This document shows, piece after piece, positions 3,867 through 21,190 of a stretch of 32,569 nt of DNA. The position numbers were made by a program, and so were the translations under genes. Source of the DNA: Promethearchaeota archaeon (GTDB lineage Archaea > Asgardarchaeota > Thorarchaeia > Thorarchaeales > Thorarchaeaceae); contig JBHLPB010000003.1 of the NCBI GenBank assembly GCA_048939905.1, forward strand, positions 1 to 32,569. Reading direction: 5' to 3'. The notes beneath the pieces were generated by a model. The model made no database searches. It saw only the letters and a program-made list of their open reading frames with translations, and had not been told where the DNA came from. Positions within the stretch are counted from its first letter, which is position 1, and every line of letters starts with the position of its first letter.

Positions 3867-4859
3867 CTAGATAAGAGCTGAATGCTTCCCACTCTCGGGG
3901 CCTCCTTCCACCTGTTGAATTGAGGCGATGAGAGCCTGCAACCGTTTCAAAATCCAGCTCCTTGTCAGATTTCGATCAGATTTCCAGAGTCTTGCATCAA
4001 GAAGAAGATCCTTTTGCACTGAGGGTTCCGTTAGAAATGCGCAATTGCTGGGAAGGGCTTCATCTTTGAAGTACCAGTCCCGAAATCGTGATGCGTGGTC
4101 TGCGTTTCTCTCTGGATGGCTGTAGTTATCGAGTCGACACCAATTTGCTGCAAACACAGCGTCTACAGTCTGAACGGTTTCCTCCAACTCTGCAGACTCC
4201 TCGAAGATAGCGCCAGATTGAGTAGCCCGCTCACTGGCATCACGAGTGACCCGTTTCAGCAAGGAGAAGTCAGGCGGTGAAGCTAGAACGACATCTGCAC
4301 CCAGTGACGCGAGAATAAGAAGTAAGCTATGAGCCGTATTCGGCAAAACGAACTTCGATCCGAATCCCCAACAGACTGCAATCCTCTTGCCTTTCAAGCC
4401 GCCAAGGTGTTCCCAGAATGAAGCCGCCACACCGAGTGCCGGCTGCGGAGCGAAGACTTCGTCAGCCAAGCTGATCGTGGGGACTTCAGAGATTCTTGCG
4501 AATTCTTCTGTGATTGCACGACCAGCCCCCAGTGTTTCCCGATCTATGAAACCAGTCACGAGGATATCAACAGCTTGACTGAACATTGACAATTCGTTGG
4601 TGAGGGCTTCATCAGATTTGGCCTTGACGTCATCCCATCCGAGAGCAACATGGCGATATCCAAGCCGGGCGGAAGCCAGTTGAAGCACTCTTGATTCGGT
4701 AGACGATACTCCATGTAGTAATGAACCTACAAGTTTCGCAACATGCATTCCATCAATGGCCATTGATGAGACAAGTCCTTCATGGCCTAGCGTCGCCTGA
4801 ATCAAATCCTCCAATGCTTTGCTGGATAGACTGTGCATGCAGCTCAGCCAACTGTACAC
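3867..4859 (-). CDS. Transcarbamylase-fold protein, YgeW-like (knotted carbamoyltransferase) with degenerate active site
   Basis: LKGKRIAVCWGFGSKFVLPNTAHSLLLILASLGADVVLASPPDFSL...ATQSGAIFEESAELEETVQTVDAVFAANW resembles the second domain of YgeW/AOTCase. The STRTR, HPxQ and HCLP motifs appear as STESR, APQP and TEPS. Start more likely at GTG 4859 (GGAG upstream) than at ATG 4904. Confidence 0.75.
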   Translation of the reverse strand: MYSWLSCMHSLSSKALEDLIQATLGHEGLVSSMAIDGMHVAKLVGSLLHGVSSTESRVLQLASARLGYRHVALGWDDVKAKSDEALTNELSMFSQAVDILVTGFIDRETLGAGRAITEEFARISEVPTISLADEVFAPQPALGVAASFWEHLGGLKGKRIAVCWGFGSKFVLPNTAHSLLLILASLGADVVLASPPDFSLLKRVTRDASERATQSGAIFEESAELEETVQTVDAVFAANWCRLDNYSHPERNADHASRFRDWYFKDEALPSNCAFLTEPSVQKDLLLDARLWKSDRNLTRSWILKRLQALIASIQQVEGGPESGKHSALI

Positions 4860-4982
4860 GAGTCTTCTCCGATAAAGGCTTCGCGATTGATGCTGCGAAA
4901 TCATGAAGTCCGTGGGCTTCGACCGATAGTCGCCGAACCAAATCTTTAATCGGAGCTGGTGGTCGCTATCATTTGAACCGAG

Positions 4983-5750
4983 ATGAAGAAGCTCCTAGTA
5001 ACTCTCACGGTAGCTGAGAGCAAACGGCTTATTGCCAAGGGACTCCTGGCGACAGATGCAGTGCAGGGAGCCATAAAGAGCGGGTATCTCTGTGTGACTC
5101 TTGGTACAACCTCTGCGTATCTTGTCGAAGAGATGCTTGGAAACTACGACAAGACCAAGCATATAGCTGGCCTCGTAGTTCCAAAGGGACTCTCTGTGAC
5201 GAACAGGGACATTCGGTCCTCTGATGCGATCTTTCACAAGGGTAAGCATATCAAAGGAAAGAAGGTGATTGATGTGCTTGACGAGCTGGGGCCAGGCGAC
5301 GTGATCATCAAGAGTGCAAACGCCCTTGATGCAAACTATGTTCCGATTGTATTACTGGCGAGTCGTACAGGAGGCACTGTGGGGACCTTCATGAGTCCTG
5401 CAGCCGCTCGGAACATCACGGTAATCATGCCCGTTGGCCTCGAGAAATGCATCCCTGCACTATATGATGACTTTCGCAACGAGTTCGGAATGGACGACTG
5501 GGACTATGCTATTGGTACACCAGTGGGTGTAATCTCAATTCCCGGAGCCACTGCTTTCACAGAGATTGAGGCACTAGATGCACTGTTTGAAGTATCAGCA
5601 ATGCCCATCTCTGCTGGAGGGATAAACGGGGCTGAAGGCTCGGTGACGTTGTTCATATCAGGAGAGGAAGAGAACACAAGAAAAGCATTCGAGTTCCTTA
5701 AGGGAATAAAGGGGGAGCCACCATTCCCTCTCGTAGAACATGTGAAGTAG
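4983..5750 (+). CDS. Conserved hypothetical protein (alpha/beta, possibly CoA-transferase/isomerase-like fold)
   Basis: 255 aa, ordinary protein-like composition; LT-x-AESKRLIAKG, GTT, DVIIKSANA, GGT-x-G, PVGLEK, TEIEAL and AGG-x-x-GAEG motifs suggest a conserved family; TATA-like TTTAAT at about 4945. Confidence 0.7.
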   Translation: MKKLLVTLTVAESKRLIAKGLLATDAVQGAIKSGYLCVTLGTTSAYLVEEMLGNYDKTKHIAGLVVPKGLSVTNRDIRSSDAIFHKGKHIKGKKVIDVLDELGPGDVIIKSANALDANYVPIVLLASRTGGTVGTFMSPAAARNITVIMPVGLEKCIPALYDDFRNEFGMDDWDYAIGTPVGVISIPGATAFTEIEALDALFEVSAMPISAGGINGAEGSVTLFISGEEENTRKAFEFLKGIKGEPPFPLVEHVK

Positions 5751-5786
5751 ATGAGAGAGCCCTGCCAAACGAGGAGCAACTGCGCT

Positions 5787-6551
5787 ATGACCGATACTGT
5801 GATTCGGACTGAATCTCTGACGAAGATCTTCGAAAAGGGTAAGAAACGCGAAGTTGTTGCACTTGACAAAGTGAGTATGGAGATTGGTCGCGGAGAAGTG
5901 TTCGGGCTCCTCGGCCCCAACGGGGCTGGCAAGACCACACTCATCAGAATCCTAATTGGTCTACTTGCACCGACCGCAGGAAATGCTTGGGTCTTGGGAC
6001 GTGATGTCACGCAGGATATTGACTACATCCGTGAGAGAGTGTCACTACTCCCTCAAGAGGCCGGAATCTATGAGCGGCTCACAGCTCGAGAGAATCTGGT
6101 CTACTATGGAGGCCTCTATGGTATTCCTGACGACGATCTTCACAACAGAGCTGACAGATTGCTGGACACGGTCGGTCTTCGCGAGAAGGAGGATTATCAA
6201 GTCAAAGGATTCAGCGGCGGAATGAAACGAAAGGTGCTGGTTGCTAGAGCACTGATAATAGAACCTGAGATTGTGTTCATGGACGAGCCGACTACTGGAG
6301 TCGATACGATAGGTGCACGTGTTGTCCGTAATGTGTTGAAGAAGTTGAGTTCTGAACAGAAGAGGACAATCATCCTTACGACACACGACTTGAATGAGGT
6401 CGCCGAGTTGTGTGATCGTGTGGGAATCTTGAACGAGGGCAATCTCGTGGCAGTAGGGAAGCCAAGCGAGCTGGAGAAGGAATTCAAGGCTGCAGACTTG
6501 GAGGAGGTCTTCATGGGGCTTGTCACAGGTGAAGGCGTATACGAGCAGTAA
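5787..6551 (+). CDS. ABC transporter ATP-binding protein (ABC-2 exporter type)
   Basis: Walker A GPNGAGKT, signature FSGGMKRK, Walker B VFMDEPT, H-loop TTHDL; ATG 5787 is a more plausible start than 5751. Confidence 0.95.
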   Translation: MTDTVIRTESLTKIFEKGKKREVVALDKVSMEIGRGEVFGLLGPNGAGKTTLIRILIGLLAPTAGNAWVLGRDVTQDIDYIRERVSLLPQEAGIYERLTARENLVYYGGLYGIPDDDLHNRADRLLDTVGLREKEDYQVKGFSGGMKRKVLVARALIIEPEIVFMDEPTTGVDTIGARVVRNVLKKLSSEQKRTIILTTHDLNEVAELCDRVGILNEGNLVAVGKPSELEKEFKAADLEEVFMGLVTGEGVYEQ

Positions 6552-6559
6552 GAGGAAAG

Positions 6560-7771
6560 GTGATTAAACTGGTACGGAAAGGGCCTGACAGGAAGATGAT
6601 ATGGCTAATCAAGAAGGAGGTCAAGTCACTCTTCCGGTCCCGGTGGCTAATCTTTGGCCTTATGATCAGCCCTCTTTTCGCATGGATGTTCGAGGGTGTC
6701 TTCCTCTCCTTTGTTGTGGCGCAAACCAGTGCCGAGCCTGAAACTGTCTACATAACACTTGAGGATGAAGGCATTTGGGGGAACACTCTCTATAGTGCTA
6801 TCGAGGGGAACATGACACCACTCCTTATCGAAGAACTGCTGAATGTCACAAGATCTGATGGTGACAATATGGTTGCCAACAGGACCCTATCCGTTTGGAT
6901 TCTAATCCCTGAGAATTTCACTCAAGAGTTGGAAGCGTCCACCAACAGCACGTTGGTTGTTTGGGTAAACACAGGCAACTTCAGGGCAACGGCTGCAGCG
7001 CAGAGGATTGACGCATTTGCGAAACAAGTCATTAACGAGATAGTAGTTATCAGAAACCTTCGTGTGGACTGGTACACTATCACCCCTGAAGCGACATACG
7101 GGCACTCCCTTGCCATATTCTTGGTAATGATAGTGTCTGTGATGGCACCATCACCATATGTCGGGCAGTCATTTGCAGGGGAGAGAGAGAAACACACACT
7201 AGAGGCGCTTCTCGTAGTTCCGATGAGCAGGGTCAGCATTCTCATTGCCAAACTGATTGCGGGACTTGCGCTCACGATGCTCTACTCAATCTTCACAGTG
7301 TTCGGTATCTTGATTTACAATTGGTCAATAGAAGTACGAGCGGTAGGCCTTCCTCCCGCAGCAATGGCCTACTATGTCAACCTCTATACTGTCAATTCGT
7401 CAGCCATCCCGCTCATATTCTTCTGTCAGCTGCTTATCCTTATCTGCGCAATTAGCATCGGGATTGTGGTGTCGAGTCTTGCGCGGGATCAGGCCACTGC
7501 CGAATCCATCAACAATCTCATACTCTTGATTCCTACTATGGTGATAGGTATCCTGGGCTTCACCGGAAGTATACTTCAGTACGGAGGCGTGTTTGGTGTC
7601 TTCGTCCTTTCGATACCATTCAGTCATGCGATTCTGTTCCTCAACGGTGTGCTCTCTGGTGTGGCTACGCCAGCCAGCCTCCTCGGAAATGTGGTCTACA
7701 TGCTTGCGTTTGCGCTAGTATTCCTGGTAATTGGTGCCAAGCTATTCGAGCGTGAGGCTATCATCGCATAG
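6560..7771 (+). CDS. ABC-2 type transporter permease (NatB-like)
   Basis: IKKEVKSLFR N-terminus, one TM helix, an extracytoplasmic domain, FAGEREKHTLEALLVVPMSR...AKL motif, then several TM helices. Confidence 0.92.
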   Translation: MIKLVRKGPDRKMIWLIKKEVKSLFRSRWLIFGLMISPLFAWMFEGVFLSFVVAQTSAEPETVYITLEDEGIWGNTLYSAIEGNMTPLLIEELLNVTRSDGDNMVANRTLSVWILIPENFTQELEASTNSTLVVWVNTGNFRATAAAQRIDAFAKQVINEIVVIRNLRVDWYTITPEATYGHSLAIFLVMIVSVMAPSPYVGQSFAGEREKHTLEALLVVPMSRVSILIAKLIAGLALTMLYSIFTVFGILIYNWSIEVRAVGLPPAAMAYYVNLYTVNSSAIPLIFFCQLLILICAISIGIVVSSLARDQATAESINNLILLIPTMVIGILGFTGSILQYGGVFGVFVLSIPFSHAILFLNGVLSGVATPASLLGNVVYMLAFALVFLVIGAKLFEREAIIA

Positions 7772-7786
7772 TATGGAGTCCTTGGA

Positions 7787-9205
7787 CTAATCCAATGGCC
7801 ACTTGGGTGTAATCTTGACATCAGCCCTTTCCATGAGTGATTGATTATGTTCACGCGCTCGCTGAATCACACTCTCCTCATCGAGTGTGAGGAGCTTCTT
7901 GCCCTGCATCAAGAGACGGCCATTGACCATCACAGTGTCAACTGCATAGCCACTTCCCGAATAGACAAGGTTCGAAACCGGGTTCGTGTTGGGAGTCAGG
8001 CCAAGATCATTCATGTCGACCAAGATGATATCTGCCAGTTTTCCTGGCTCGAGAGACCCCACCGTTTCAGCAATACCCATGGCTTTGGCGCCGCCCAGTG
8101 TTGCCATCTCAATTGCCTGCTCAGCAGTCACTACAAGAGGGTCATCGGCCTTGGCTTTGTGAATCAGTGCGGCCAATCGCAACTCCCGGATCATGTCATA
8201 GGTGTTGTTGCTGGGTCCTCCATCGCAACCCAGCGACACAGGCACTCCCAGCTCCAGCATCTCAGGGACTCTGGCAAAGCCTGAAGCTAGCTTCATGTTG
8301 CTTGCTGGACAATGTGAGATATTCGACTGGGTTACAGCCAGGCGATTCAGGTCGGCATCATCAAGATGTATACCATGCGCGAAGACCATGTCGGGCCCAA
8401 GTAGCCCCATCTCTTGAGCAAACTCAGTAAGACCCATCTCAAAGTTGTTTCGGACAAATCTTACATCATCCACGACCTCTCCCAAGTGCATGGTCATCCG
8501 TGTGTCCTTCTCTCTGCTCAGTCGAACTACTTCTTTGAACAAGTCGGGAGTGACCGCGCCAAGAGAACGCAATCCATACCACACCTGTAGACGGCCATCC
8601 GCTTTCCCATGCCACTTGGAGTACATTCTGTCGGTTTCCTCCAAGCACGCGTCACGATCTTCAATCATGCCGTGATACATGATGTCCTCGCTATCGGCAT
8701 AGCCGGTTGAGTCCATCACAATCTTGGACAGAGCACCACGCATGCCGACCTTCTCTACCGACTCTGCAATCTTGTCAAAGCCATAGCGAGTGTGAATCAT
8801 GCATTCTAGGAACGAAGTGGTCCCAGTTCTAATCATCTCCGCCATGCATAGCTCCGCAGACACCTTGCCGTCATCGCCAGTGAAATTGCCTTGAAGCACC
8901 CAAACATAGCTCTTAAGCCAGTCAACGAGAGATACATCGTCGGCACAGCCTCTAATGAGTGCCTGGGCGAGATGAACGTGAGTGTCGATAAGCCCAGGCA
9001 TGACAATCATGTTTCTTGCATCAAGAATGAGCTCCGCCTTTGTGTCGCTGAGCTCTTCGGTCTTTCCGACACTGTTGATTTTGCCATCTTCTATATGGAC
9101 AGCACCGTCAGCGATTATCCTGCGCGTCTTATCCAGAGTTAGAACATAGCCATTCTTGATGAGAACGGATCTTGCAGATTTCAAGTCGATGACCCAAATG
9201 CACAC
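7787..9205 (-). CDS. Metal-dependent amidohydrolase, MTA/SAH-deaminase / SsnA / AtzA-TrzA family (probable purine or nucleoside deaminase)
   Basis: PGLIDTHVH, GTTS, MHLGE, AHGIH, HCPASNMKL, LGCDG and GSLEPGKLAD motifs; true start may be TTG 9184. Confidence 0.9.
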   Translation of the reverse strand: MCIWVIDLKSARSVLIKNGYVLTLDKTRRIIADGAVHIEDGKINSVGKTEELSDTKAELILDARNMIVMPGLIDTHVHLAQALIRGCADDVSLVDWLKSYVWVLQGNFTGDDGKVSAELCMAEMIRTGTTSFLECMIHTRYGFDKIAESVEKVGMRGALSKIVMDSTGYADSEDIMYHGMIEDRDACLEETDRMYSKWHGKADGRLQVWYGLRSLGAVTPDLFKEVVRLSREKDTRMTMHLGEVVDDVRFVRNNFEMGLTEFAQEMGLLGPDMVFAHGIHLDDADLNRLAVTQSNISHCPASNMKLASGFARVPEMLELGVPVSLGCDGGPSNNTYDMIRELRLAALIHKAKADDPLVVTAEQAIEMATLGGAKAMGIAETVGSLEPGKLADIILVDMNDLGLTPNTNPVSNLVYSGSGYAVDTVMVNGRLLMQGKKLLTLDEESVIQRAREHNQSLMERADVKITPKWPLD

Positions 9206-9257: not shown

Positions 9258-11039
9258 TTACGAAGGGTCTGCAAGTCTGAACTTGATGGTCACGTCAAGT
9301 CCCTGTTTCGGACGACCGGCTACTCTGTCTCCCACAGTCAGTTCTGCATCGTACTTCTCGGCGAGACGCCTTACTAGATGCAGACCAACGCCTCCGTATC
9401 TTCGCTCTGCATCAAGAATGGCCTTCTTCTTCGAGGCAGTGAGACCGGGCCCGTTGTCGGAGATACTCAGACTGAAGGTATCTCCTTTCTTCTTGCCTCT
9501 AATCCACAGACTGCGCTCCAGTTTAGAATTATGCTTCACACCGTTCTCAAGCAGGTTCCACAAGAGTTGAGAGAGCGCACTGTCAGCCATCACAATCATT
9601 CGTTCTGGCACCCCAACCATACTAGGAGTAACAGAGTACTGTTCGGATAAGTGTTTGACTTCCTTCCTGAGGATGGGGGAGAGATTCACTGGAGATACAC
9701 TCTCCTGCTTGGATGCCTCGGCTTTCCTCACCTTCGTGATGAGATCAAGGCATCTGTCGGCGCCGTCGAGTATGTACCGCTTGGCTCTCATGACCTCGTC
9801 TGAAGTGCAGTCGTCTTGGAGAAAGCCACCTCCTGCAATTATCAGTTGCATCTGGTTTCCGACATCATGCATCAGAAGATCAAGCAGAAAGCGCACCTCG
9901 TCCTCTGCCGACTTCAATTCAGTTACCTCAGTGAATATGGCAAAACTGCCAGTGTACTTTCCATCGGGATTGTGAATGGGTGCCGCGGACACCATTACCG
10001 GGATTAACTCTCCCGACTTGTGAATCAGCTTCGCCTCGTAGTGCTCCACCTCACCCTTTCTCCTGGCAGCCTTCCTTTCCAGCTGTTTCTCCTTCGTCAG
10101 CCCATGGAGTATCGAACTATTCTCGGTGCCGACTAGCTCTCCCTTCTCATATCCCAACATCTCGTTCAAGGCGGCATTGGTATAGATGATTCTGCCATCT
10201 TCGTCGTCTACACCCATTCCTGCAGTCATTGTTTCTACGAGTTGGCGGTAGTTCCGTTCGGACTCCTCGAGCATTTGCTGGTGTACTTTCTGATCAGTTA
10301 TGTCCATGAGCTGGGTAACTGACTTTACTCTACTATCACGTCCAGTCATCGTGCTTACGTGAACACGCACATCGCGGGGAGTGCCATCAGCTCGGCGAAT
10401 CTTGAACTCATACGTGGATGGGATCTTCTCGCCTCTCTGTCGCTTTTCATAGCGCTCAGCCACCATGTCCAGACTATCAGGATGAACATACTGACGGAAG
10501 TCGCTTCCTAGGAGTTCTGCACGCCGAACTCCCACGATATCGCAGAGCTTGTCGTTTACATATTCAAATCGGTACTTATCATCAATAATCATTATTCCAT
10601 TGAAGCTTGAGTATTCTACGATATACTCCAGTAGATCAATCCTCTCACGAATCTTCTCCTCTACGGCAACCCTCCGTGAGAGATCCACCAAGTAGGCCAC
10701 AAAGCCAGACAACTTCCCATCAGTCAGTATTCTGTCTGAATACACTTGAGTTGGGACGTGCACACCGTCCTTTCTGACTACTCTGAGACTCAGAGAGGTG
10801 GGCTTTGCGCCATCCTGGAGTGCATTCAAACCTCGATGAACCAGTTCTATCTGCTCATTGGCCACCAAGGTGTCAAGATGTACTCCCCTTCTGATGTCGG
10901 TTTCATCCATTCCAAAGAGTTCTAGTGCACTGGCATTGGCATACTCTAGATAAAAGTCAAGATTGAAATCCAAGACGGGGATTAACATGGAGTCCGCGAT
11001 TTCTCTGAAACGCTTCCTATCTTTCCCCATGTCAATCAC
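9258..11039 (-). CDS. Soluble multi-PAS sensor histidine kinase
   Basis: Three PAS/PAC-like repeats (YANASALELFG, YVNDKLCDIVG, YTNAALNEMLGY); H-box LLMHDVGNQ, N-box NLLENGVKHN, G1 DNGPG, G2 GGVGL; no TM segment. Confidence 0.92.
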   Translation of the reverse strand: MIDMGKDRKRFREIADSMLIPVLDFNLDFYLEYANASALELFGMDETDIRRGVHLDTLVANEQIELVHRGLNALQDGAKPTSLSLRVVRKDGVHVPTQVYSDRILTDGKLSGFVAYLVDLSRRVAVEEKIRERIDLLEYIVEYSSFNGIMIIDDKYRFEYVNDKLCDIVGVRRAELLGSDFRQYVHPDSLDMVAERYEKRQRGEKIPSTYEFKIRRADGTPRDVRVHVSTMTGRDSRVKSVTQLMDITDQKVHQQMLEESERNYRQLVETMTAGMGVDDEDGRIIYTNAALNEMLGYEKGELVGTENSSILHGLTKEKQLERKAARRKGEVEHYEAKLIHKSGELIPVMVSAAPIHNPDGKYTGSFAIFTEVTELKSAEDEVRFLLDLLMHDVGNQMQLIIAGGGFLQDDCTSDEVMRAKRYILDGADRCLDLITKVRKAEASKQESVSPVNLSPILRKEVKHLSEQYSVTPSMVGVPERMIVMADSALSQLLWNLLENGVKHNSKLERSLWIRGKKKGDTFSLSISDNGPGLTASKKKAILDAERRYGGVGLHLVRRLAEKYDAELTVGDRVAGRPKQGLDVTIKFRLADPS

Positions 11040-13747: not shown

Positions 13748-13752
13748 TCTGG

Positions 13753-14847
13753 ATGGCAGATCTTCGGGTTGAGATAGCGGGGCTGAAGTTCCGAAACCCT
13801 GTCTTCACCGCTGCAGGACCCACCTCTAGAGACGGCATGACTCTGCTCAACGCGGCGGCAGGTGGAGCAGGAGGACTAGTAGCGAAGACTGTCAGCGTCA
13901 AGCCCGCAGAGGTTCCAAGGCCCAACATGGCAGCCATTGGTCGTGGGAGGATTGTTTCGAGGCGGGGGATTCTCAACGCAGAGCTCTGGAGTGAGTTGCC
14001 GTTCGAGAGATGGTATGAGAAAGAATATGAGATTGCACTCGGGGCAGGTCTTCCCGTGCTAGCCAGTGTGGGCTATACTCCAGAAGAAGTGGCATCACTT
14101 GCACCGAAGATAGAGGAGAAGGGTGTACATGGCATCGAGTTTAGTACACATTACGTCGGTGGCCATACAGAGATAGCCAAGGCACTCAGAGAATCAGTAG
14201 ACATCCCAGTCTTCGCGAAACTGAGCCCAAGAGTCGATGTGACGGAAGTGGCAAAGTCGCTGGACAGATTAGTCGACGGGATTGTTGCTATCAATACATA
14301 CGGACCCTGCTTGAGAATAGACATTGGAACTGGCAGACCAATGCTAGGAAGTGAGCTGGGGCAAGGATGGATGAGTGGTTCAGCACTGAAACCCATAGCC
14401 TTGAGGTGCGTTGCAGATATTGCGAGGTCTACAAAGAAACCTATCATTGGTGTCGGCGGAGTCATGAAGGGAGAGGACGCAATTGAGTTCTTCATGGCAG
14501 GCGCCTCAGCAGTTGAGGTTTGCACTGCTGCAATCCTTGAAGGTGACACAGTCTACGGACGCATTGTATCTGAGATTCAGGAATGGCTTGACGAACATGG
14601 CCACAGTTCAGTCGAAGATGTCAGGGGCATGGCACTTCCGCATCTTAAGAGAGGCATTGTTTTAGAGCCCCCACCTAAGGTTGATCGAGAGCGATGTACG
14701 CTTTGTGGACTCTGTAGGAAATCATGCGTTTACCATGCAATCTCAATAGACAAGGCCAAGGGTACTTTCGAGATAAGCAAAGAAGCATGCGAGGCATGCG
14801 GTATGTGCATCTCAGTCTGTCCACATGATGCGCTTAGCGTCGACTAG
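13753..14847 (+). CDS. Dihydroorotate/dihydropyrimidine dehydrogenase (PreA-like) FMN protein with C-terminal 2x[4Fe-4S] domain; atypical active-site loop
   Basis: NPVFTAAGP, VAKT, LNAELWS, PVFAKLSP, AINT, SGSALKPIAL, IIGVGG, AGASAVEVCT; C-terminal CTLCGLC...C and CEACGMC...CP; IEFSTHY in place of ELN-x-SCP. Confidence 0.85.
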   Translation: MADLRVEIAGLKFRNPVFTAAGPTSRDGMTLLNAAAGGAGGLVAKTVSVKPAEVPRPNMAAIGRGRIVSRRGILNAELWSELPFERWYEKEYEIALGAGLPVLASVGYTPEEVASLAPKIEEKGVHGIEFSTHYVGGHTEIAKALRESVDIPVFAKLSPRVDVTEVAKSLDRLVDGIVAINTYGPCLRIDIGTGRPMLGSELGQGWMSGSALKPIALRCVADIARSTKKPIIGVGGVMKGEDAIEFFMAGASAVEVCTAAILEGDTVYGRIVSEIQEWLDEHGHSSVEDVRGMALPHLKRGIVLEPPPKVDRERCTLCGLCRKSCVYHAISIDKAKGTFEISKEACEACGMCISVCPHDALSVD

Positions 14848-14863: not shown

Positions 14864-16057
14864 CTAGAGATAGAGCAATTCATCAAGTCCTGTTGTGAGT
14901 AGCTTCGCCTTGCCCTTGGTCACCGTGTAGTCATTCTCAATCCGCACTCCGCCAATCTCCTTGAGGTATACTCCAGGCTCTATCGCCATAACGTTCCCAA
15001 TCCGGAAATAGTCCTCTCGTTGATGCATGCTGGGGTCCTCGTGTACAGCAAGACCAATACCATGACCCAAACCATGCGTCATGCCTTCAGTGGCCGCAGG
15101 GTTCAAGCGACGAGAGTCGTAACCGGCCGCCTTCAGGGTTTCAGCACAGGCGAGATTGACATCGTCAATCTTGGCTCCATCCGTGAGTGCATCAACTGAG
15201 GAATCGGCCGCTGCCTTGACGGACTCAAACATATGGCGAATATTCTCACTCACTGAACCTTTGATGAATGTTCGCGTGACATCTGCAACATAGCGTTCCA
15301 TCTTCAGCCTAGGAAACACGTCTAATATTATGGGAACCTCAGCTTTGAGCTCATCCTCTGGAGCACCAAGGTAATGCCAGTCAAAGCCCTTGTCACCCAC
15401 AGCCAAGATTGTGTCCTCGGCAGAATGAGCACCCTGATCCAGCAAGGAATGCTCGAGTGTCAGCTTGACATCCTTGACGGTCAACGGCTTGTTCTCATAC
15501 ATCAATGTCTTCTTTGGACCGACTTCTGAGTCCTTAACCATCTCCAGTACTTTCGATATGGCACCAGTCGTTGCGTCCCCAGCCTTCTTAATCGCCTCAA
15601 TCTCGCTCTCAGACTTGGTTGCCCGAGCATCCATCATGATATCAGAGACGACCTTGACATCATAGCCGAGCTTGAGAACTGTTTCATACACCTTTGAAGG
15701 TGTGTCCTCTGGAACTCCAATCGTCTTTCCTGTAAACACACTGCGCAGAATGTCGTCAAAGATCACGTCGAGGTTTTCTGCAACTCGTTTGTTTTCTTTC
15801 ATCAGTTTGAGATATACACCGCTGATGTCATGAGTAGTATTGATTCGACTCTCTTTCTGCACACGACTAAGTGTGTGGAAACCAGCTGCAACAATCGGTC
15901 TGTCGTTTATGTTCTGGATGAAGACAATCTCATCACTGGATCTGAACCCAGTAAGCCAGAAGAGGTCATTCATCTGGAAAGTACTTCCAGCAGTGAAAAG
16001 TGCGTCAATCCCATACTCCTCCATGAGAGCGTCTAGGTCGTCAAGCACATGCAGCAC
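14864..16057 (-). CDS. M24 metallopeptidase (Xaa-Pro aminopeptidase/prolidase family)
   Basis: R-x-x-KS-x-x-EI, ILDVFP, YVADVTRT, HGLGHGIGLAVHEDP, IEPGVY, GGVRIEND. Confidence 0.93.
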   Translation of the reverse strand: MLHVLDDLDALMEEYGIDALFTAGSTFQMNDLFWLTGFRSSDEIVFIQNINDRPIVAAGFHTLSRVQKESRINTTHDISGVYLKLMKENKRVAENLDVIFDDILRSVFTGKTIGVPEDTPSKVYETVLKLGYDVKVVSDIMMDARATKSESEIEAIKKAGDATTGAISKVLEMVKDSEVGPKKTLMYENKPLTVKDVKLTLEHSLLDQGAHSAEDTILAVGDKGFDWHYLGAPEDELKAEVPIILDVFPRLKMERYVADVTRTFIKGSVSENIRHMFESVKAAADSSVDALTDGAKIDDVNLACAETLKAAGYDSRRLNPAATEGMTHGLGHGIGLAVHEDPSMHQREDYFRIGNVMAIEPGVYLKEIGGVRIENDYTVTKGKAKLLTTGLDELLYL

Positions 16058-16096: not shown

Positions 16097-16990
16097 TCAG
16101 GCCTGCGAATATGGCCTCATTCTTCGCAACACCTGTTCCTTGCTGGGAAGATTATATGGACCAACGGTTTCAACGTTGAAGGACGAGCATGTGGCTCCGA
16201 ACAAACCCGCACGCTTCACATCACCGGTTCGCATATACTCAAGAAGGAATCCAATCGTATAGCTGTCACCACATCCGGTCGAGTCCACCTGAGCATTTGC
16301 AAGGACAAGAGGAATATCCACCTGGATATTTCGAGTATATATCGTAGAGCCTCGCTTGTCACGTGTGACGACTACCATTCTTGGCCCCAGAGCAAGCAGC
16401 TCTGTTGCCGCAGAGAGCTCGGACTTTGCGTCAACTGCAAGCTGGAGTTCGGTGTCGTCGAGCTTCACCACATCGGTCAGGCTGATAACGTCATCACGAT
16501 CTGGCCATTCTCTCTCGACGACCTCTTCGCCCTCTACACTCCTCAGATATCCCTGTGCGTCCAGAGAAATCAAACCTCCGCTCGATCTTGCAGTTTCAAT
16601 CATGGAGAGCGGCATCTCCTCTGCGGTCAGTGGGCAGAAGTGGTATATGCTAGCCCCAAGGTGCTTCTGTTGCATGTCATCAGGTTTCAGGGGAGGAGCC
16701 CTTGCCTGAAGCCGTTGTTTGCGCGCGCCCTTCTCGTCGTACTCATTCACAAAACGTGTGGATTTGCGACCTCTATAATGCAGGCCATCAATATCTAGAC
16801 CAGATTCCTGAAGAGTCTGTACATAATCCTCTTCAAAGTCAGTGCCTACGCAGGTTATGATTCCAGCCCCGAATGCTTCAAGGTTCATCGCCAGCATTGC
16901 GTAGGCCGTACCACCTCCAAGAACCTCTCTTGTTGTTTCTGGTGTGATGATGAGATCCCTGCTCAGGTGACCAACAACCACAATCTCCAT
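16097..16990 (-). CDS. PfkB/ribokinase-family carbohydrate or nucleoside kinase
   Basis: VVVGHLSRD, GGGTAY, VGTDF, LDAQGY, VVTRDKRGS, DSTGCGDSY. Confidence 0.92.
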   Translation of the reverse strand: MEIVVVGHLSRDLIITPETTREVLGGGTAYAMLAMNLEAFGAGIITCVGTDFEEDYVQTLQESGLDIDGLHYRGRKSTRFVNEYDEKGARKQRLQARAPPLKPDDMQQKHLGASIYHFCPLTAEEMPLSMIETARSSGGLISLDAQGYLRSVEGEEVVEREWPDRDDVISLTDVVKLDDTELQLAVDAKSELSAATELLALGPRMVVVTRDKRGSTIYTRNIQVDIPLVLANAQVDSTGCGDSYTIGFLLEYMRTGDVKRAGLFGATCSSFNVETVGPYNLPSKEQVLRRMRPYSQA

Positions 16991-17083
16991 TCCCGAATCC
17001 TCCAGCAGTAGGCTCTTGCTACACCGACTAGATGCGTGTCCTTCAGCAATGTCACCTATAATTCCTCTGAATCCTCCTACCTT

Positions 17084-17106
17084 GTTACACTTCGTAACGG
17101 TTAAAA
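17084..17106 (+). promoter_or_regulatory. Palindrome GTTAC-N5-GTAAC plus TATA-like TTAAAA upstream of the second AOR operon
   Basis: GTTACACTTCGTAAC at 17084-17098 and TTAAAA at 17101-17106, about 28 nt before TTG 17134. Confidence 0.45.
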
Positions 17107-17133
17107 TCCCTAGTCACACGTTCGTAGGTTGAG

Positions 17134-17424
17134 TTGACGACTTTGGCAACAGTCACTGTAAAGTTCTTCGCAACAGTTCGCGAGGCAGTAGGTAGGAGAA
17201 GTGCTGAGATAGAGGCTGCGAACATAAGAGAACTGCTGGAGCTTCTCAAACAGAAATACGGGAAACGCTTCACCGATACAGTGATTGATGATAAAACTGG
17301 TGAGCTGAAGAGGTTCTACCAGTGCATGGTCAATGGAAAGCGCATTGAGCTTCTGGACGGATACGAAACAGAACTGAATGATTATGACTCCGTGGCGCTT
17401 TTCCCTCCCGTTGGAGGAGGCTAG
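17134..17424 (+). CDS. MoaD/ThiS-family sulfur carrier, ubiquitin-like small archaeal modifier (SAMP1-like)
   Basis: VKFFATVRE, VNG...LDGYETEL, C-terminal ALFPPVGGG; TTG start at 17134 or 17143. Confidence 0.92.
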   Translation: MTTLATVTVKFFATVREAVGRRSAEIEAANIRELLELLKQKYGKRFTDTVIDDKTGELKRFYQCMVNGKRIELLDGYETELNDYDSVALFPPVGGG

Positions 17425-17450
17425 GACCCCAAATCAGTCCTAAGAGAGGT

Positions 17451-18818
17451 ATGGCATCCATGGTTGACCTGGTCGTAAAGAATGCACGACTTCTACTGGA
17501 ATCAGGATTAGCGAAGGGAGGAATTGGAGTTGAGCAGGGCCGCATATGCGCAATCGCGAGAGACGAGCATCTGCCCGACGCAGATACCGTAGTTGACGCC
17601 GAGGGCAACATCCTGATGCCTGGTCTCATCGATGGTCATGCTCACATTCACGACCCCACTATGCCGGACCACGAGGACTTCACAACCGGTTCTCGCGCTG
17701 CAGCTGCTGGAGGTGTCACGACTCTTATTGACATGCCCTTAACCAATCAGGTTGATACGCCCCAGGTTGTGGACGAGAAAATCAAACAGGGAGAGCAAAT
17801 GTCGATTGTTGATTTCTCGTTCTATGCAGGAATGCTAAGCTCAGAGAACTACCCGATGATACCGTCTATGGTCGAAAGGGGGATCGCGGCCTTCAAGGCT
17901 TTTACTTGCGAACCATATCCAGTACATGACGGAGTCCTGGTCCAAGCACTGAGTACGGTTTCCGAGTACGGCGGACATGTGACGGTGCACTCAGAGAATC
18001 AGGGTGTCTTAGATGAGTTCGGGAAGGAGATGGAGGGAGAATGGGACGCCCCCATCAGTCACTCCCTCGCAAGACCAAACCTTGCAGAACAACTCGCAAT
18101 CAGACAGATGGTCAGTATTGCAGAGCAGACTCAGGGACACTTGCATGTGGCACACGTCACCACGAGGGAAGGTATTGTTGAGGTTGAACGCGGAAAGCTG
18201 AGAGGTGTGATGACAACCACTGAAGTATGTCCACACCATCTTGTTTTCCAAAGGGATGACATGAATCGACTTGGCCCCAAGAGCAAGATGAACCCACCAC
18301 TCAGGGCCAAACAGGACAGGTCAGCTATGTGGTCAGCCCTGCTGAGAGGCACAATTGACATGACCGTGAGTGATCATGCGCCGTGTCCTTTGGAGAAGAA
18401 GGAAGCAGGTGCTGAAGATATCAGAGAGGCATGGTCAGGAGTCGACGGAATTCAAATGATTCTAAGAGTCCTTCTTTCAGAAGGAATCAACAAGGGTCGA
18501 CTGTCATTCACAAGACTCCTCAACGTAGCCTCGTGTAGTCCTGCCAAGGTATTTGGACTCTACCCTAGAAAGGGGGTACTTCAGGTTGGAGCCGACGCCG
18601 ACTTTGTCGTATTGGACCACACAAAGGAAGAGAAGATCAGCTCGGACATGATGTTCTCCAAGTGTGGATGGACACTCTACGAAGGTATGAATATGAAGGG
18701 AGTGCCTCTCAAGACTTACGTACGGGGCACGCTTGTTTTTGAAACTGACAGGACCACAGTGGAGCCAGGTCATGGAAGATTCCAATCTATGAGCGGCATG
18801 AAACCATTTGAGGACTGA
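17451..18818 (+). CDS. Cyclic amidohydrolase, allantoinase/dihydroorotase/hydantoinase family
   Basis: PGLIDGHAH, AAAAGGVTT-x-IDMPL, FKAF (carbamylated Lys), HSEN, HVAHVT, EVCPHHL, KMNPPLR, SDHAPC, GADAD. Confidence 0.92.
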   Translation: MASMVDLVVKNARLLLESGLAKGGIGVEQGRICAIARDEHLPDADTVVDAEGNILMPGLIDGHAHIHDPTMPDHEDFTTGSRAAAAGGVTTLIDMPLTNQVDTPQVVDEKIKQGEQMSIVDFSFYAGMLSSENYPMIPSMVERGIAAFKAFTCEPYPVHDGVLVQALSTVSEYGGHVTVHSENQGVLDEFGKEMEGEWDAPISHSLARPNLAEQLAIRQMVSIAEQTQGHLHVAHVTTREGIVEVERGKLRGVMTTTEVCPHHLVFQRDDMNRLGPKSKMNPPLRAKQDRSAMWSALLRGTIDMTVSDHAPCPLEKKEAGAEDIREAWSGVDGIQMILRVLLSEGINKGRLSFTRLLNVASCSPAKVFGLYPRKGVLQVGADADFVVLDHTKEEKISSDMMFSKCGWTLYEGMNMKGVPLKTYVRGTLVFETDRTTVEPGHGRFQSMSGMKPFED

Positions 18819-18821
18819 ACA

Positions 18822-19313
18822 ATGACAATACGAGAGTTCGTATTTGGAGACCCAGAGGTGTGCACTGGATGCATGATCTGTGTGAACGTGTGCAGCATGC
18901 ACTACTTCAAGGTGATAGGACCGGCATGGTCTCGTGCCAGAGTTGTGAGAGTAGAACCAGGGCTTGACTTCCCTCTGTTCTGTCGCAACTGCGAAGATGC
19001 GCCTTGCATTGACTCTTGTCCGGAAAAGGCTCTCAGCAGGACATCAAAGGGAGTCGTGATAGTGAACAACAAGAAGTGCAAGGGACATGGTGCCTGCATC
19101 GCTGCATGTCCATACAATGCAATCCATTTGAATCCGGACACTCAGAAGGCTATCAAGTGTATCCAGTGCGGCAGATGCGTAGAGCGGTGCCCAGTGAACG
19201 CAATCTGGACTACAACGGACGAAGAGCTCCAGAAGATGGATTCAGACGGAAGGCTTGCAGGGCACTATGAAAGAAACAAGGCCGAGATCTATGGCAAGGA
19301 GGGCTTCCGGTGA
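18822..19313 (+). CDS. 4Fe-4S dicluster electron-transfer subunit of AOR 2
   Basis: CTGCMICVNVC, CRNCEDAPCIDSCP, CKGHGACIAACP (His in place of one Cys), KCIQCGRCVERCP; GTGA overlap with AOR 2. Confidence 0.92.
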   Translation: MTIREFVFGDPEVCTGCMICVNVCSMHYFKVIGPAWSRARVVRVEPGLDFPLFCRNCEDAPCIDSCPEKALSRTSKGVVIVNNKKCKGHGACIAACPYNAIHLNPDTQKAIKCIQCGRCVERCPVNAIWTTTDEELQKMDSDGRLAGHYERNKAEIYGKEGFR

Positions 19314-21190
19314 TCAAAGGAATAGGTGGGAACATCATCTGGGTAGACCTAGCGAAGGGAGAGATAGAGAAGCGACCAGTCGAGGAAGAGATGGTCAGAC
19401 AGTATCTTCTTGGAGCTGGATACCTATCCAGGGTTATCTTCGACCTGGTCCCGGTAGGCACAGATCCTTTCTCACACAAAAACGTCCTCGGAATTGCGAC
19501 GGGGCTGCTCACAGCATCGATGTTTCCGCAGGCGTCGCGTCATGTCGTGGCGGCACTGTCTCCCCTCACGGATGTTTGGGGAGAGTCGCACGCGGCCGGA
19601 TTCTGGGGGCCAGAGTTGAAACTGGCAGGTTACGACGCGGTAGTATTCACTGGTGCCTCTTCAGACCCGGTGTATCTCAATATTGAGAACAGCAAGGTCG
19701 AACTCCTGGACGCAAGTGAGATTTGGGGAACATCCGTCTTTCATACAGACGACTGGATTAGAGAGAAACACGACCGACAGACCAGAGTGCTCTCAATTGG
19801 TCAGGCAGGAGAGAATCTTGTAAGATTCGCTGCAGTGATGAACGACAGAGACAGAGCGTCAGCAAGATCCGGACTCGGCGCAGTCATGGGGGCGAAGAAA
19901 CTGAAGGCAGTTTCCGTACGGGGAACTGGGAAAATAGAGGTTGCAGACCCGCAGAACTACCTGAAGCAAATGGACATATTCTATAAGCGCATGTTGGCCA
20001 ACCCTTTCACGGAGGAGAGAGCGAAGTACGGTACAACAAACCTGGTCGAACTCATGGATCACATAGGCAGGCTCCCCAGCTATAACATGAAACAGGGCGT
20101 CTTTGAGGGTTACGAGAAGATCAGTGGAGAAACCATTACCAGGGAGTATCTAGTGAAACCGCGCTCGGATTGGAGCTGCTTGCAGAGATGTGGCAGATAC
20201 ACGAGAGTGAAGGATGGCCCCTATAAGTACATAGGCGGGTCTCCCGAATTCGAGTCCCAGTCATCACTTGGTTCTCGTTGTGGGAATGATAACATAGAGT
20301 CCGTGCTCTATTCGCATCATCTCTCTAACCTATACGGCATGGATACTATCTCTCTTGGTGGCACAATCTCTTGGGCTATGGAGGCCTGGGACGAGGGACT
20401 CATCACAGCAGAAGACACTGGAGGAATAGACCTCTCTTGGGGCAACCACGAAACGGTGGTCAAGTTGACTGAGATGATCGCGCTGAGAGAAGGATTCGGA
20501 GATATCCTAGCCGAGGGAAGCGCTAGGGCTGCCGAGAAGATTGGGCGCGGCACTGACAGGTTCGTGATGACTGTGAAGAAGCAGGAAATGGCAGGCCAAG
20601 AACCCAGAGCGCAGAAGTCCATGGGTCTAGCAGCAGTGACAGCGGCACGGGGGGCAGATCACCTCTACTCATTTCCGGTCCTAGACGAGGCCGGATTTGA
20701 CGACGAGATAAAGGAGCGTTTCGGAGAACAGTATCTTCCTGAGATGGCTGACAGATTGAACCCGAAGTACAAGGGTATAATGGTGAAAGAATGCGAGGAC
20801 TTCATGGTAGTTGTCGAAAGCGTAGGACTATGCAAGTATGGTACGCAGATTCCTCCGGAGTTCTACTATGACGACGTTGCTCTTGCTCTTAAGATTCACA
20901 ATGGGCTTGAGTTCACAGTGGAGGAGCTGCAGGTGATTGGAGAGAGAATTGTAAACCTGAACCGTCTGTTCAATGTAGCACGTGGGGTGACTCGTAGAGA
21001 TGATCAGCTGCCTGACAGGCTCACAAAGGAGAAGGCCCCCAAGGGACCGCCCAAGGGCCAAGTTGTCGAACTTGACCAGATGCTTGACGAGTACTATCAA
21101 GTGAGAGGATGGGAGGTTGAAACGGGACTCCCTCTGAAAAGCACGCTTGAGCGACTGGGTTTATCGAAGGATGCTGAAGGAGTTGTCTAG
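19310..21190 (+). CDS. Tungsten-containing aldehyde:ferredoxin oxidoreductase family protein (AOR 2)
   Basis: 626 aa; SPLT...ESHAAG, RSGLGAVMGAKK, GRLPSYN, DWSCLQRC, SPEFE, YGMDTIS, RGADHL, VESVGLCKY, LDEYYQVRGW. Confidence 0.95.
   Translation: MIKGIGGNIIWVDLAKGEIEKRPVEEEMVRQYLLGAGYLSRVIFDLVPVGTDPFSHKNVLGIATGLLTASMFPQASRHVVAALSPLTDVWGESHAAGFWGPELKLAGYDAVVFTGASSDPVYLNIENSKVELLDASEIWGTSVFHTDDWIREKHDRQTRVLSIGQAGENLVRFAAVMNDRDRASARSGLGAVMGAKKLKAVSVRGTGKIEVADPQNYLKQMDIFYKRMLANPFTEERAKYGTTNLVELMDHIGRLPSYNMKQGVFEGYEKISGETITREYLVKPRSDWSCLQRCGRYTRVKDGPYKYIGGSPEFESQSSLGSRCGNDNIESVLYSHHLSNLYGMDTISLGGTISWAMEAWDEGLITAEDTGGIDLSWGNHETVVKLTEMIALREGFGDILAEGSARAAEKIGRGTDRFVMTVKKQEMAGQEPRAQKSMGLAAVTAARGADHLYSFPVLDEAGFDDEIKERFGEQYLPEMADRLNPKYKGIMVKECEDFMVVVESVGLCKYGTQIPPEFYYDDVALALKIHNGLEFTVEELQVIGERIVNLNRLFNVARGVTRRDDQLPDRLTKEKAPKGPPKGQVVELDQMLDEYYQVRGWEVETGLPLKSTLERLGLSKDAEGVV

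Follow-up and report, generated by a model that had tools for sequence, protein, structure and literature searches.

A Thorarchaeota gene cluster that may couple tungsten aldehyde oxidoreductase-family modules to a purine-ring reductase

Why should an archaeon keep two enzymes of the tungsten-pterin aldehyde ferredoxin oxidoreductase (AOR) family in operons with proteins that resemble nucleobase-ring enzymes? The question is posed by a 32,569-nt stretch of DNA from a relative of the Thorarchaeota (hereafter the window), whose genes were called from a map of open reading frames (ORFs) and from Pfam and NCBIfam family scans. As the best explanation of the region, we propose that it is the Thorarchaeota version of an archaeal cluster for the anaerobic, reductive breakdown of oxopurine-type rings, in which tungsten AOR-family modules would be wired to a ring-reducing enzyme. 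At its centre stands a flavoprotein of the UacX type, and we hold it to be probable, with considerable room for doubt, that this predicted purine-ring reductase is functionally coupled to AorAB-type modules. In bacteria, the cluster for the reductive degradation of uric acid and 2,8-dioxopurine combines XdhD-YgfM, YgfK or UacX, SsnA, HyuA, YgeW/UacY, YgeY, YgeX, and YqeA (bioRxiv 10.1101/2025.05.19.654654; 10.1101/2025.04.24.650524). There, YgfK is the 2,8-dioxopurine reductase that dearomatises the ring, and UacX, a PydA homologue described as having a site for flavin mononucleotide (FMN) and lacking a flavin adenine dinucleotide (FAD) domain, replaces it in Clostridium difficile, with reduced ferredoxin suggested as its donor (bioRxiv 10.1101/2025.05.19.654654).

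Two operons on the forward strand make up the core of the locus. The first (11325-14847) opens with FeS1 (11325-11816), a polyferredoxin of 163 amino acids with four [4Fe-4S] clusters that matches Fer4 and PadI/AegA/YgfT N-terminal-type families and resembles the electron-transfer subunit AorA. Its gene overlaps by 4 nt that of AOR1 (11813-13747), a predicted tungsten-pterin AOR-family subunit (AFOR_N 4.9e-71, AFOR_C 7.9e-121), and the gene of the flavoprotein (13753-14847; 364 amino acids, Pfam DHO_dh 1.4e-33 followed by Fer4 matches for two [4Fe-4S] clusters) starts 5 nt past the AOR1 stop. The second operon (17134-21190) begins with a small MoaD/ThiS-family protein that ends in GGG (17134-17424; TIGR01687 moaD_arch, SAMP1), followed after a 26-nt gap by a cyclic amidohydrolase (17451-18818), placed in the hydantoinase/allantoinase/dihydropyrimidinase group by NCBIfam scores and solved structures. 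Only 3 nt further on lies FeS2 (18822-19313), a second four-cluster polyferredoxin (Fer4 families) and the partner of AOR2 (19310-21190; AFOR_N 1.7e-68, AFOR_C 4.8e-126), the second predicted tungsten-pterin subunit, with which it overlaps by 4 nt; for both AORs the two domain matches are, in order of magnitude, at E <= 1e-68. Between the operons, on the reverse strand, an M24 metallopeptidase-fold protein (14864-16057) and a PfkB-family kinase (16097-16990), both recognised by Pfam and with only weak NCBIfam matches, form a pair that converges on operon 1 and diverges from operon 2. A second amidohydrolase, of the cytosine/guanine-deaminase-chlorohydrolase group (DadD/MtaD-like, NF005557), is encoded upstream on the reverse strand (7787-9205). 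The genes and the 5-nt and 3-nt gaps are as the initial annotation of this DNA had given them.

Relatives of the flavoprotein were gathered with a profile built from its alignment and run against one genome per species, which returned 373 relatives; the best 80 were taken as loci, and the window proteins were mapped onto them by tblastn (window and loci together are the 81 sources referred to below). The flavoprotein had been described as a PreA/dihydroorotate dehydrogenase (DHODH)-like ring reductase, of which the ring-reductase fold holds and the kinship to PreA does not. Pfam finds DHO_dh over residues 4-279, Fer4 over residues 309-361, and nothing else, so that there is no FAD- or NAD(P)-binding domain, and eight Cys at residues 315-356 are invariant. 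It scores below every curated PreA and PyrD cut-off of NCBIfam: 184.8 bits against 335 for PreA (NF006183), 178.1 against 270 for TIGR01037 (pyrD_sub1), 174.1 against 269 for NF005574, and 127.9 against 330 for NF041011. In alignments, the segment CNFSCPQ of E. coli PreA, or SCP of pig dihydropyrimidine dehydrogenase (DPD), has no counterpart in the flavoprotein, and the Cys loop is likewise missing in comparison with the class 1B DHODH 5ksw. We take the Cys of this deleted segment to be the catalytic Cys of PreA, DPD, and class 1 DHODH (the N-x-S-C-P loop). The barrel equivalents of Lys45, Asn75, Asn181, and Thr182 are kept with respect to pig DPD and PreA; we assume for these Lys, Asn, and Asn-Thr positions the roles they have there, Asn75 and Asn181/Thr182 aligning with what are presumably the uracil-binding positions of pig DPD.

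Nor are the partner genes of either family nearby. PreT was found in 0/81 sources by tblastn with the E. coli reference (E <= 1e-6), the window has no GltD-like gene, and family scans of the window show no PyrK-like gene. A PreA/DPD identity was rejected on the deleted Cys loop, the score below the cut-off, and the lack of PreT, and a class 1 PyrD identity on the scores below the cut-offs, the missing Cys loop, the presence of a ferredoxin domain, and the lack of a PyrK-like gene in the window. No fused or longer (Rosetta-stone) forms of the flavoprotein were found, which is a weak kind of evidence, and its homologues are publicly annotated with the generic name 'dihydroorotate dehydrogenase subfamily 1'.

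Bacterial relatives give the flavoprotein a more specific identity. The flavoprotein was compared by tblastn with annotated plasmids and chromids, and gene contexts were fetched for three of the best matches (H1, H3, and H15) among 102 records. All three contexts, from Cetobacterium somerae (44.9% identity), Clostridium butyricum (38.9%), and C. novyi (38.1%), are annotated uricolytic clusters; E. coli PreA is 29.2% identical. In order, these clusters encode diaminopropionate ammonia-lyase (dpaL), a YgeY-family hydrolase, D-aminoacylase, SsnA or an 'amidohydrolase', and then the UacX-type match, annotated merely as '4Fe-4S binding protein'. After it come FAD, 2Fe-2S, and molybdenum (Mo)-cofactor proteins; some of the clusters further encode a second xanthine dehydrogenase, a dihydropyrimidinase, and XdhC. 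The archaeal family and the three uricolytic-cluster proteins have in common the deletion of seven residues and a motif, [FIV]S[TA]HYVG, neither of which is found in E. coli PreA. Judged by its sequence, then, the flavoprotein is of the UacX type and neither PreA nor PyrD, the C. difficile UacX being known to us by its description only, and the substrate class that follows from this type is most likely purine. Bacterial UacX has SsnA and Mo hydroxylases as its neighbours, whereas the archaeal loci have pairs of polyferredoxin and AOR in this position, in many cases accompanied by SsnA, hydantoinase-like, and ornithine-carbamoyltransferase-family genes.

Is the association of these genes conserved? 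The initial annotation had allowed that it might not be, and the survey of neighbourhoods shows that it is. We divided the 80 loci into Thor-type loci (n = 59), with flavoproteins at least 63% identical to that of the window, and distant loci (n = 21; 50-58% identical); flavoprotein homologues that are 57-90% identical carry labels of the Thorarchaeota and other Asgard lineages. All archaeal loci examined are metagenome-assembled, and neither a search with AOR2 homologues nor the Atlas searches named a cultured archaeal host. The block FeS1-AOR1-flavoprotein / M24-PfkB / MoaD-amidohydrolase-FeS2-AOR2 recurs in Thor-type genomes, and the pairing of AOR and flavoprotein recurs in Hermod-, Baldr-, and Bathyarchaeia-type loci. 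Among loci with enough upstream sequence (49 Thor-type, with at least 2 kb, and 20 distant), an AOR gene stands upstream of the flavoprotein gene on the same strand in 45/49 Thor-type loci, at a distance of <=150 nt in 16/45 and of 254-4044 nt in the other 29, and directly adjacent to it, with a gap of 11-36 nt, in 16/20 distant loci, which are labelled variously as Hermodarchaeota-type, Baldrarchaeota, Bathyarchaeia, 'Nitrososphaeria/Thaumarchaeota', and Thermoplasmata. The claim that AOR and Fe-S operons are linked to nucleobase-ring enzymes thus extends to several archaeal lineages. Three further loci (L041, L068, and L076) have AOR and Fe-S genes near the flavoprotein gene in other orientations.

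Because the Thor-type loci are close kin, we counted them as a single architecture, which leaves independent support from about seven architectures; across these, and across five labelled lineages, the adjacency survives the shuffling of gene order. Downstream of the flavoprotein, Thor-type loci keep M24 (42/45), PfkB (35/38), MoaD (34/37), the amidohydrolase (30/32), FeS2 (29/32), and AOR2 (26/28). A MoaD-family gene is present in 16/21 distant loci, and M24 and PfkB in 0/21. The PfkB kinase that had been counted among the nearby genes is therefore present, and conserved in Thor-type loci only.

Several details of the Thor-type loci are recorded here in their own right. In the three loci whose insertions were scanned, the same-strand genes that separate AOR1 from the flavoprotein gene encode CLC channels with CBS domains (two in L024, 6259-9946; one in L012, 8082-9956) or a DUF362 protein (L007, 5538-6494), and in L029 the gap of 490 nt holds a small antisense ORF. 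The locus on a complete chromosome, L001 (93-95% identical), retains the stretch FeS1-AOR1-flavoprotein-M24-PfkB together with a truncated MoaD gene; its flanks (L001:888-3086 and 17186-18718) encode a carbon-nitrogen hydrolase, an M20 peptidase with 23% identity to YgeY of E. coli, and an Amidohydro_3 protein of D-aminoacylase type. A promoter-like, A/T-rich box, AACAACTTAAAG (about 11255-11275), lies upstream of FeS1 in 19-20 of 26 Thor-type loci, and an A/T-rich box resembling GCAACGGTTTTAATC (about 17090-17110) upstream of MoaD in 9-14 of 37. No k-mer common to the FeS1 (26 loci) and MoaD (37 loci) upstream regions was found, each having its own conserved box.

The gene content of the distant loci, drawn from 93 ORFs of six loci (Pfam), 17 of these also by NCBIfam, and from tblastn with E. 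coli references, fits a purine theme. These loci carry one to three pairs of AOR and polyferredoxin together with MoaD genes; in the Hermod-type loci the MoaD gene follows directly after the flavoprotein gene. SsnA-like proteins reach 455.6 bits in L041, against a cut-off of 444, and 396 in L048, 380 in L045, and 307 in L068 (a split gene); SsnA-like genes also occur in L045-type and L048/L050 loci, and true SsnA is confined to non-Thor loci. A second, DadD-like amidohydrolase of the distant loci (410-475 bits against a cut-off of 522) belongs to the same family as the amidohydrolase at 7787-9205, and hydantoinase-group hydrolases are found in L048, L050, and L076. Fifteen loci have one or two OTCase-family (ornithine carbamoyltransferase) genes, 32-35% identical to YgeW and scoring as N-acetylornithine-carbamoyltransferase-like. 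L076 adds an adenine deaminase and a PnrA-type nucleoside-binding ATP-binding cassette (ABC) system. In L041 a single same-strand run encodes SsnA, a DadD-like protein, the flavoprotein, an Fe-S protein, MoaD, AOR, an Fe-S protein, and AOR, and L048 has 14 consecutive genes that fit the pathway theme. In L048 and L074 there is a pyridoxal phosphate (PLP) enzyme, which we considered as DpaL and rejected: it scores as threonine-synthase-like, and YgeX has no match. In L074, a Thermoplasmata locus, genes for an ADP-forming acyl-CoA synthetase-like protein, a 2-oxoacid:ferredoxin oxidoreductase, and the threonine-synthase-like PLP enzyme (1223-8918) precede the flavoprotein gene, which overlaps the gene of a DadD-like amidohydrolase.

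The AORs themselves were compared with solved structures and with one another. By HMMER, the best solved relatives of AOR1 are 9mqx (421 bits), 8c0z (AorB; 398), and 1aor (396); both AORs match these three aldehyde oxidoreductases best (359-434 bits), with formaldehyde oxidoreductase, WOR5, and BamB lower. A FastTree phylogeny of 57 cluster AORs and E. coli YdhV, with rows from the window, 13/59 Thor-type loci, and 20/21 distant loci, resolves three clades, each of which spans phyla; since it holds cluster AORs only, the tree does not show that the clades are confined to such clusters. All 30 AORs located upstream of the flavoprotein fall into the AOR1-type clade (32 rows, support 99). The AOR2-type clade has 21 rows (support 97), and the third has four rows, whose genes lie a short way downstream of the flavoprotein gene in L041, L048/L050, and L076. 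AOR2 is 60-65% identical to its counterparts in Hermod-type, Baldr, and L048/L050 loci and 41% identical to the long-branch member in L076. AOR1 keeps the CxxCxxxC...C motif for a [4Fe-4S] cluster. At the first Cys of CxxCxxxC, 19/21 AOR2-type rows have Asp (D287 in the window; another example is L045:13328-15253), and this position is Cys in 32/32 AOR1-type and 4/4 third-clade rows. Because Asp replaces the first Cys, the AOR2-type sequences suggest a cluster that is Asp-ligated or otherwise altered. All three clades also have RGADH beside the conserved His (about 455-459 in AOR1 and 447-451 in AOR2), where the solved 9mqx has RGGCH and 8c0z RGACH.

The electron-transfer and maturation proteins that accompany the AORs carry their own resemblances. 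FeS1 and FeS2 are four-cluster polyferredoxins, and 16 Cys are invariant in 22 FeS1 orthologues; FeS1 shows 32-38% identity with YgfS of E. coli, and the polyferredoxins resemble YgfS and the N-terminus of YgfT/AegA, named by NCBIfam as formate-dependent uric acid utilization proteins. The small protein of operon 2 scores 78.8 bits with TIGR01687 moaD_arch (cut-off 49.5) and 62.2 with SAMP1 (cut-off 60), and its C-terminus reads PPVGGG. In the aor operon of Aromatoleum aromaticum, the MoaD-like genes aorD and aorE are thought to serve tungsten-cofactor synthesis (PMC6365974). On this precedent, the protein that had been labelled a SAMP is better read as a MoaD-like AOR accessory, which probably serves tungsten-cofactor maturation, in the manner of AorD/AorE, rather than protein modification.

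Which other steps of a purine pathway does the window encode? The amidohydrolase of operon 2 had been called allantoinase/hydantoinase-like, and among solved structures L-hydantoinase 1gkr comes first (269 bits), followed by allantoinases (233-240), then D-hydantoinase, with dihydroorotases at <=192. In curated scores it falls just below the allantoinase cut-off (TIGR03178, 349.5 bits against 357.85) and below that of D-hydantoinase (311 against 393), and it exceeds that of the broad domain model pyrC_multi (TIGR00857, 303.8 against 279). Its identity with E. coli AllB is 33% and with HyuA 29%, and the readable HxH, K, H, H, and D positions are assumed to be metal ligands. We propose that it may open a reduced ring, in a HyuA-like role. 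The amidohydrolase at 7787-9205, which had been taken for an SsnA-type enzyme, turned out to be DadD/MtaD-like: its best family is NF005557 (5'-deoxyadenosine-deaminase-like, 410 bits against a cut-off of 522), its best solved match the methylthioadenosine/S-adenosylhomocysteine deaminase 4f0r (253 bits), and its SsnA scores are low (NF005540, 220.3 against 444; TIGR03314, 204.8 against 455.5). Its orthologues (53-54% identical) adjoin SsnA and FeS1 in Hermod-type loci, and DadD-like homologues in L041, L048, and L074 are 31-36% identical to it and touch the flavoprotein gene in L041 and L074; it could act as a base deaminase or else hydrolyse a ring in the manner of SsnA.

Further upstream, the reverse-strand ORF that had been called YgeW-like (3867-4904) did not hold up. 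It is a degenerate OTCase-fold ORF with a C-terminal OTCace domain only (39.5 bits) and no OTCace_N match, it reaches 43-44 bits with YgeW models whose cut-offs are 453-500, and it reads STESR in place of STRTR with no HPxQ or HCLP, which we assume to be the OTCase motifs. Synteny with L034 (91-97% identical, the closest locus with sequence there) ends at about 4920 and does not include it, so that it is probably not part of the system.

The absences match part of what had been claimed. XdhA, XdhD, YgfM, YgfK, YgeX, YqeA, and YqeB/C have no match in any of the 81 sources within flanks of 10 kb (tblastn with E. coli references, E <= 1e-8), in agreement with the initial annotation, which had seen neither xdh nor preT. 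An allantoin route was dropped: AllC, AllD, and AllE were found in 0/81 sources (tblastn, E <= 1e-6), which leaves glyoxylate, named in the initial annotation as an example of an aldehyde released by ring opening, without support. Family scans of the window found no beta-ureidopropionase or aminotransferase.

How might these parts work together? Operon 1 has the layout aorA-aorB-aorC, in which the polyferredoxin and the tungsten-pterin subunit with its one [4Fe-4S] cluster are kept and the UacX-type protein replaces AorC. FeS1, AOR1, and the flavoprotein may form one complex, where an iron-sulfur chain through the polyferredoxin would join the cluster of the tungsten-pterin subunit to both clusters of the flavoprotein and its FMN. 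Low-potential electrons would thus reach the FMN, and this would reduce, and so dearomatise, an oxopurine, most likely one that is 2,8-dioxopurine-like. Ring reduction by YgfK is undetectable without SsnA and perhaps thermodynamically unfavourable (bioRxiv 10.1101/2025.05.19.654654), which is why a low-potential electron donor makes sense. The reduced ring could then be opened by the amidohydrolases, that at 17451-18818 and possibly that at 7787-9205, and operon 2 would supply the second tungsten module, co-transcribed with a MoaD-type maturation factor and the ring-opening hydrolase. The AOR modules stand where bacteria have the Mo/selenium (Se) hydroxylases XdhD/YgfM and xanthine dehydrogenase (XDH).

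What the tungsten sites would do can be read in two ways, which we rate about equal and each of which falls somewhat short of an even chance. On one hand, they may take over purine-ring chemistry itself, namely the 6-dehydroxylation of urate and the hydroxylation of hypoxanthine or xanthine, a tentative reading in which the AOR-family enzymes would be archaeal counterparts of the Mo/Se purine hydroxylases and would not work as aldehyde oxidoreductases in vivo; AOR1-type enzymes would strip urate of its 6-oxo group and so yield 2,8-dioxopurine (the role of XdhD/DOPDH), AOR2-type and third-clade enzymes would hydroxylate hypoxanthine or xanthine (the role of XDH), and the polyferredoxins would shuttle the electrons to the FMN reductase, so that the conversion of hypoxanthine to a dihydro-dioxopurine would make no net electron demand. 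By analogy, a pterin enzyme is encoded beside UacX in both domains of life, and two Mo enzymes per bacterial cluster would compare with two or three AOR orthogroups here. On the other hand, the AORs may serve as an electron supply only, oxidising aldehydes derived from amino acids, or malonate semialdehyde, while the polyferredoxins feed the flavoprotein and tungsten never touches a heterocycle, a possibility that we hold with equal reserve and that can be likened to formate serving urate degradation in E. coli. The best solved relatives of both proteins are true aldehyde oxidoreductases with the catalytic-region motifs kept, the polyferredoxins look like YgfS and the YgfT/AegA N-terminus, L074 has a ferredoxin-reducing 2-oxoacid oxidoreductase in place of an AOR beside the flavoprotein, and the third subunit of AorABC is an electron exit (PMC6365974), all of which agrees with a supply role. 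Yet the established bacterial pathway, as set out in the available part of its description, contains no aldehyde intermediate (bioRxiv 10.1101/2025.05.19.654654), a point that speaks for ring chemistry as well. In addition, two or three AOR orthogroups, each with a polyferredoxin, are kept across phyla, a number beyond what supplying electrons would appear to require, and the substrate of the reductase must still be made with no Xdh nearby, which again favours chemistry on the ring.

Two other explanations do without a purine ring, and both seem to us considerably weaker. The locus might serve a reductive, Pyd-type degradation of pyrimidines, with the flavoprotein as a PydAc-like dehydrogenase, the amidohydrolase as dihydropyrimidinase, the DadD-like protein as cytosine deaminase, and the AOR oxidising malonate semialdehyde from beta-alanine, which would balance the two electrons of uracil reduction. 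The domain make-up of the flavoprotein does equal that of the C. pasteurianum variant of PydAc (FMN and one ferredoxin domain, with a further ferredoxin ORF; PMC7332683), and the window has a dihydropyrimidinase-like hydrolase and no SsnA. Asn75 and Asn181/Thr182, for which we assume a uracil-binding role, are moreover kept. Nevertheless, the Cys loop of PreA and DPD is deleted, and this deletion recurs specifically in uricolytic-cluster proteins (PydAc being known by description); the window lacks beta-ureidopropionase and aminotransferase, and among the genes of related loci are those for SsnA, adenine deaminase, and a protein that binds purine nucleosides, so that we regard the pyrimidine route as unlikely. 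Least probable is that there is no pathway at all, that the hydrolase and the flavoprotein are PyrC and PyrD or unrelated proteins, that the AORs serve peptide fermentation, and that the adjacency is accidental within related lineages. The pyrC_multi score above its cut-off and the public DHODH names of the homologues would suit it, as would the many AORs of Asgard genomes, read as aldehyde-oxidising in one metabolic reconstruction (PMC8163825). A flavoprotein without the class 1 DHODH loop, with a ferredoxin domain, and with scores below all PyrD cut-offs does not, and neither does a hydrolase that scores higher with hydantoinase and allantoinase structures than with dihydroorotases; a role as the sole biosynthetic PyrC and PyrD is thus unlikely. 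Accident is further opposed by an adjacency that outlasts shuffling in about seven architectures and five labelled lineages, and by bacterial flavoprotein relatives that sit in uricolytic clusters.

Our preferred explanation, a UacX-type purine-ring reductase coupled to AOR modules, also has to face observations that weigh against it. By sequence both AORs are ordinary, closest to broad-range aldehyde oxidoreductases, with the PEYE and His motifs kept, and we know of no AOR-family enzyme that acts on N-heterocycles. The AOR1 and flavoprotein genes are 0.25-4 kb apart in 29/45 Thor-type loci, and translational coupling is accordingly not universal. L001, the closest relative with a complete genome, lacks the amidohydrolase-FeS2-AOR2 operon at this place, as well as the upstream flank, and in L074 the flavoprotein is encoded beside a 2-oxoacid:ferredoxin oxidoreductase, with no AOR in the 11 kb of that locus. 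By family scans and tblastn, the window has no SsnA, functional OTCase, YgeX, YgeY, or carbamate kinase, and so the Thor-type block encodes just part of any pathway and may do something narrower than the full one. Finally, the loci examined are the best 80 of 373 flavoprotein relatives, with flanks of up to 10 kb.

The remaining genes of the window touch the system less directly. A PAS-domain sensor histidine kinase (9258-11039, reverse strand; PAS, HATPase_c), encoded between the DadD-like amidohydrolase and FeS1, is a possible regulator; it is syntenic at the same position only in those Thor-type loci that reach that far. On the forward strand, a hypothetical protein of 255 amino acids, an ABC-2 ATPase, and a permease (4983-7771; Pfam) form an upstream flank that is syntenic in Thor-type loci and is at most a candidate associate of the pathway; for the function of the 255-amino-acid protein, Atlas searches give unnamed clusters only. 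A radical-SAM protein (2710-3813; Radical_SAM 40 bits, with a weak score of pyruvate formate-lyase-activase type) adjoins the degenerate OTCase-fold ORF outside the conserved block. Downstream of AOR2, family scans identify a block (22181-28737) with a PadR regulator, a FixC/geranylgeranyl-reductase-like flavoprotein, a FixX-like ferredoxin, two FAD-linked oxidases, and a CCG-domain (GlpC/HdrD-like) Fe-S protein. It has no counterpart in Thor-type loci, where CrtC-like, DUF998, or tRNA ligase genes follow AOR2, and it looks like an inserted module of lactate/glycolate-oxidase type. Rfam and tRNA scans found no Rfam match or tRNA gene in the window.

It was not until 2025 that the reductive uric-acid pathway was elucidated, and this in bacteria only, where it depends on Mo/Se hydroxylases. 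The cluster suggests a related route with tungsten enzymes in sediment archaea (Asgard, Bathyarchaeia), and purines may thus join the substrates that these abundant and mostly uncultured organisms recycle. For AOR enzymology it would mean either that subunits combine in a new way, a DHODH-fold FMN enzyme being joined to AorAB, or that the family has a wholly new class of substrates; if the tungsten sites do act on the purine ring, the AOR family would gain its first chemistry on N-heterocycles, and the purine pathway would be one that is based on tungsten and independent of selenium. The archaeal labels 'dihydroorotate dehydrogenase', '4Fe-4S binding protein', and the generic 'aldehyde ferredoxin oxidoreductase' could also become specific. 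In a search that did not extend to subscription journals or bioRxiv supplements, we found no published description that ties an AOR or tungsten to purine or pyrimidine catabolism, and the cluster points to an undescribed, tungsten-dependent purine degradation. In the available part of Liu et al. the words 'archaea', 'tungsten', and 'ferredoxin' have 0 occurrences (bioRxiv 10.1101/2025.04.24.650524), and that of Li et al., whose SsnA network is restricted to bacteria, mentions neither archaea nor tungsten (bioRxiv 10.1101/2025.05.19.654654).

Several known systems share features with the cluster. With E. coli PreA and pig DPD (1gt8, 7m31), the flavoprotein shares a TIM-barrel FMN domain followed by two [4Fe-4S] clusters and the Lys45, Asn75, Asn181, and Thr182 equivalents; unlike them, it lacks the seven-residue Cys segment and a PreT partner and is only 27-29% identical. 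PydAc of Clostridium chromiireducens, which we compare by description and not by sequence, also has FMN and ferredoxin domain(s), no FAD/NADPH domain as described, and a low-potential iron-sulfur donor, but it reduces uracil and lies in a Pyd cluster (PMC7332683), whereas the archaeal family is without the PreA/DPD Cys loop and groups with uricolytic-cluster proteins. Operon 1 and its surroundings recall the AorABC system of Aromatoleum aromaticum in gene order, with a polyferredoxin, a tungsten subunit, a third redox subunit, and a MoaD-like gene (PMC6365974), in the 16-Cys AorA-like subunit encoded directly upstream, and in the 398-bit match of AOR1 to 8c0z_A. The differences are an archaeal host, RGADH instead of RGACH, and, in the third slot, a UacX-type protein with FMN and two [4Fe-4S] clusters in place of AorC, the FAD subunit that reduces NAD+ (PMC6365974). 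The bacterial uric-acid cluster likewise has a hydantoinase-group amidohydrolase and a ring reductase of the UacX type (FMN/Fe-S), which is 38-45% identical and has lost the same loop, with a pterin-cofactor redox enzyme encoded beside it. In the related archaeal loci SsnA and an OTCase-family gene are shared as well, and, just as in C. butyricum, the gene directly upstream of that of the reductase encodes a second amidohydrolase. Unlike the bacterial cluster, the archaeal loci have no Mo/Se Xdh-family protein, YgfM, YqeB/C, YgeX, YgeY, or carbamate kinase within 10 kb (81 sources), the window is without SsnA, and, in an archaeal host, AOR-family enzymes with four-cluster polyferredoxins occupy the place of the Mo hydroxylases.

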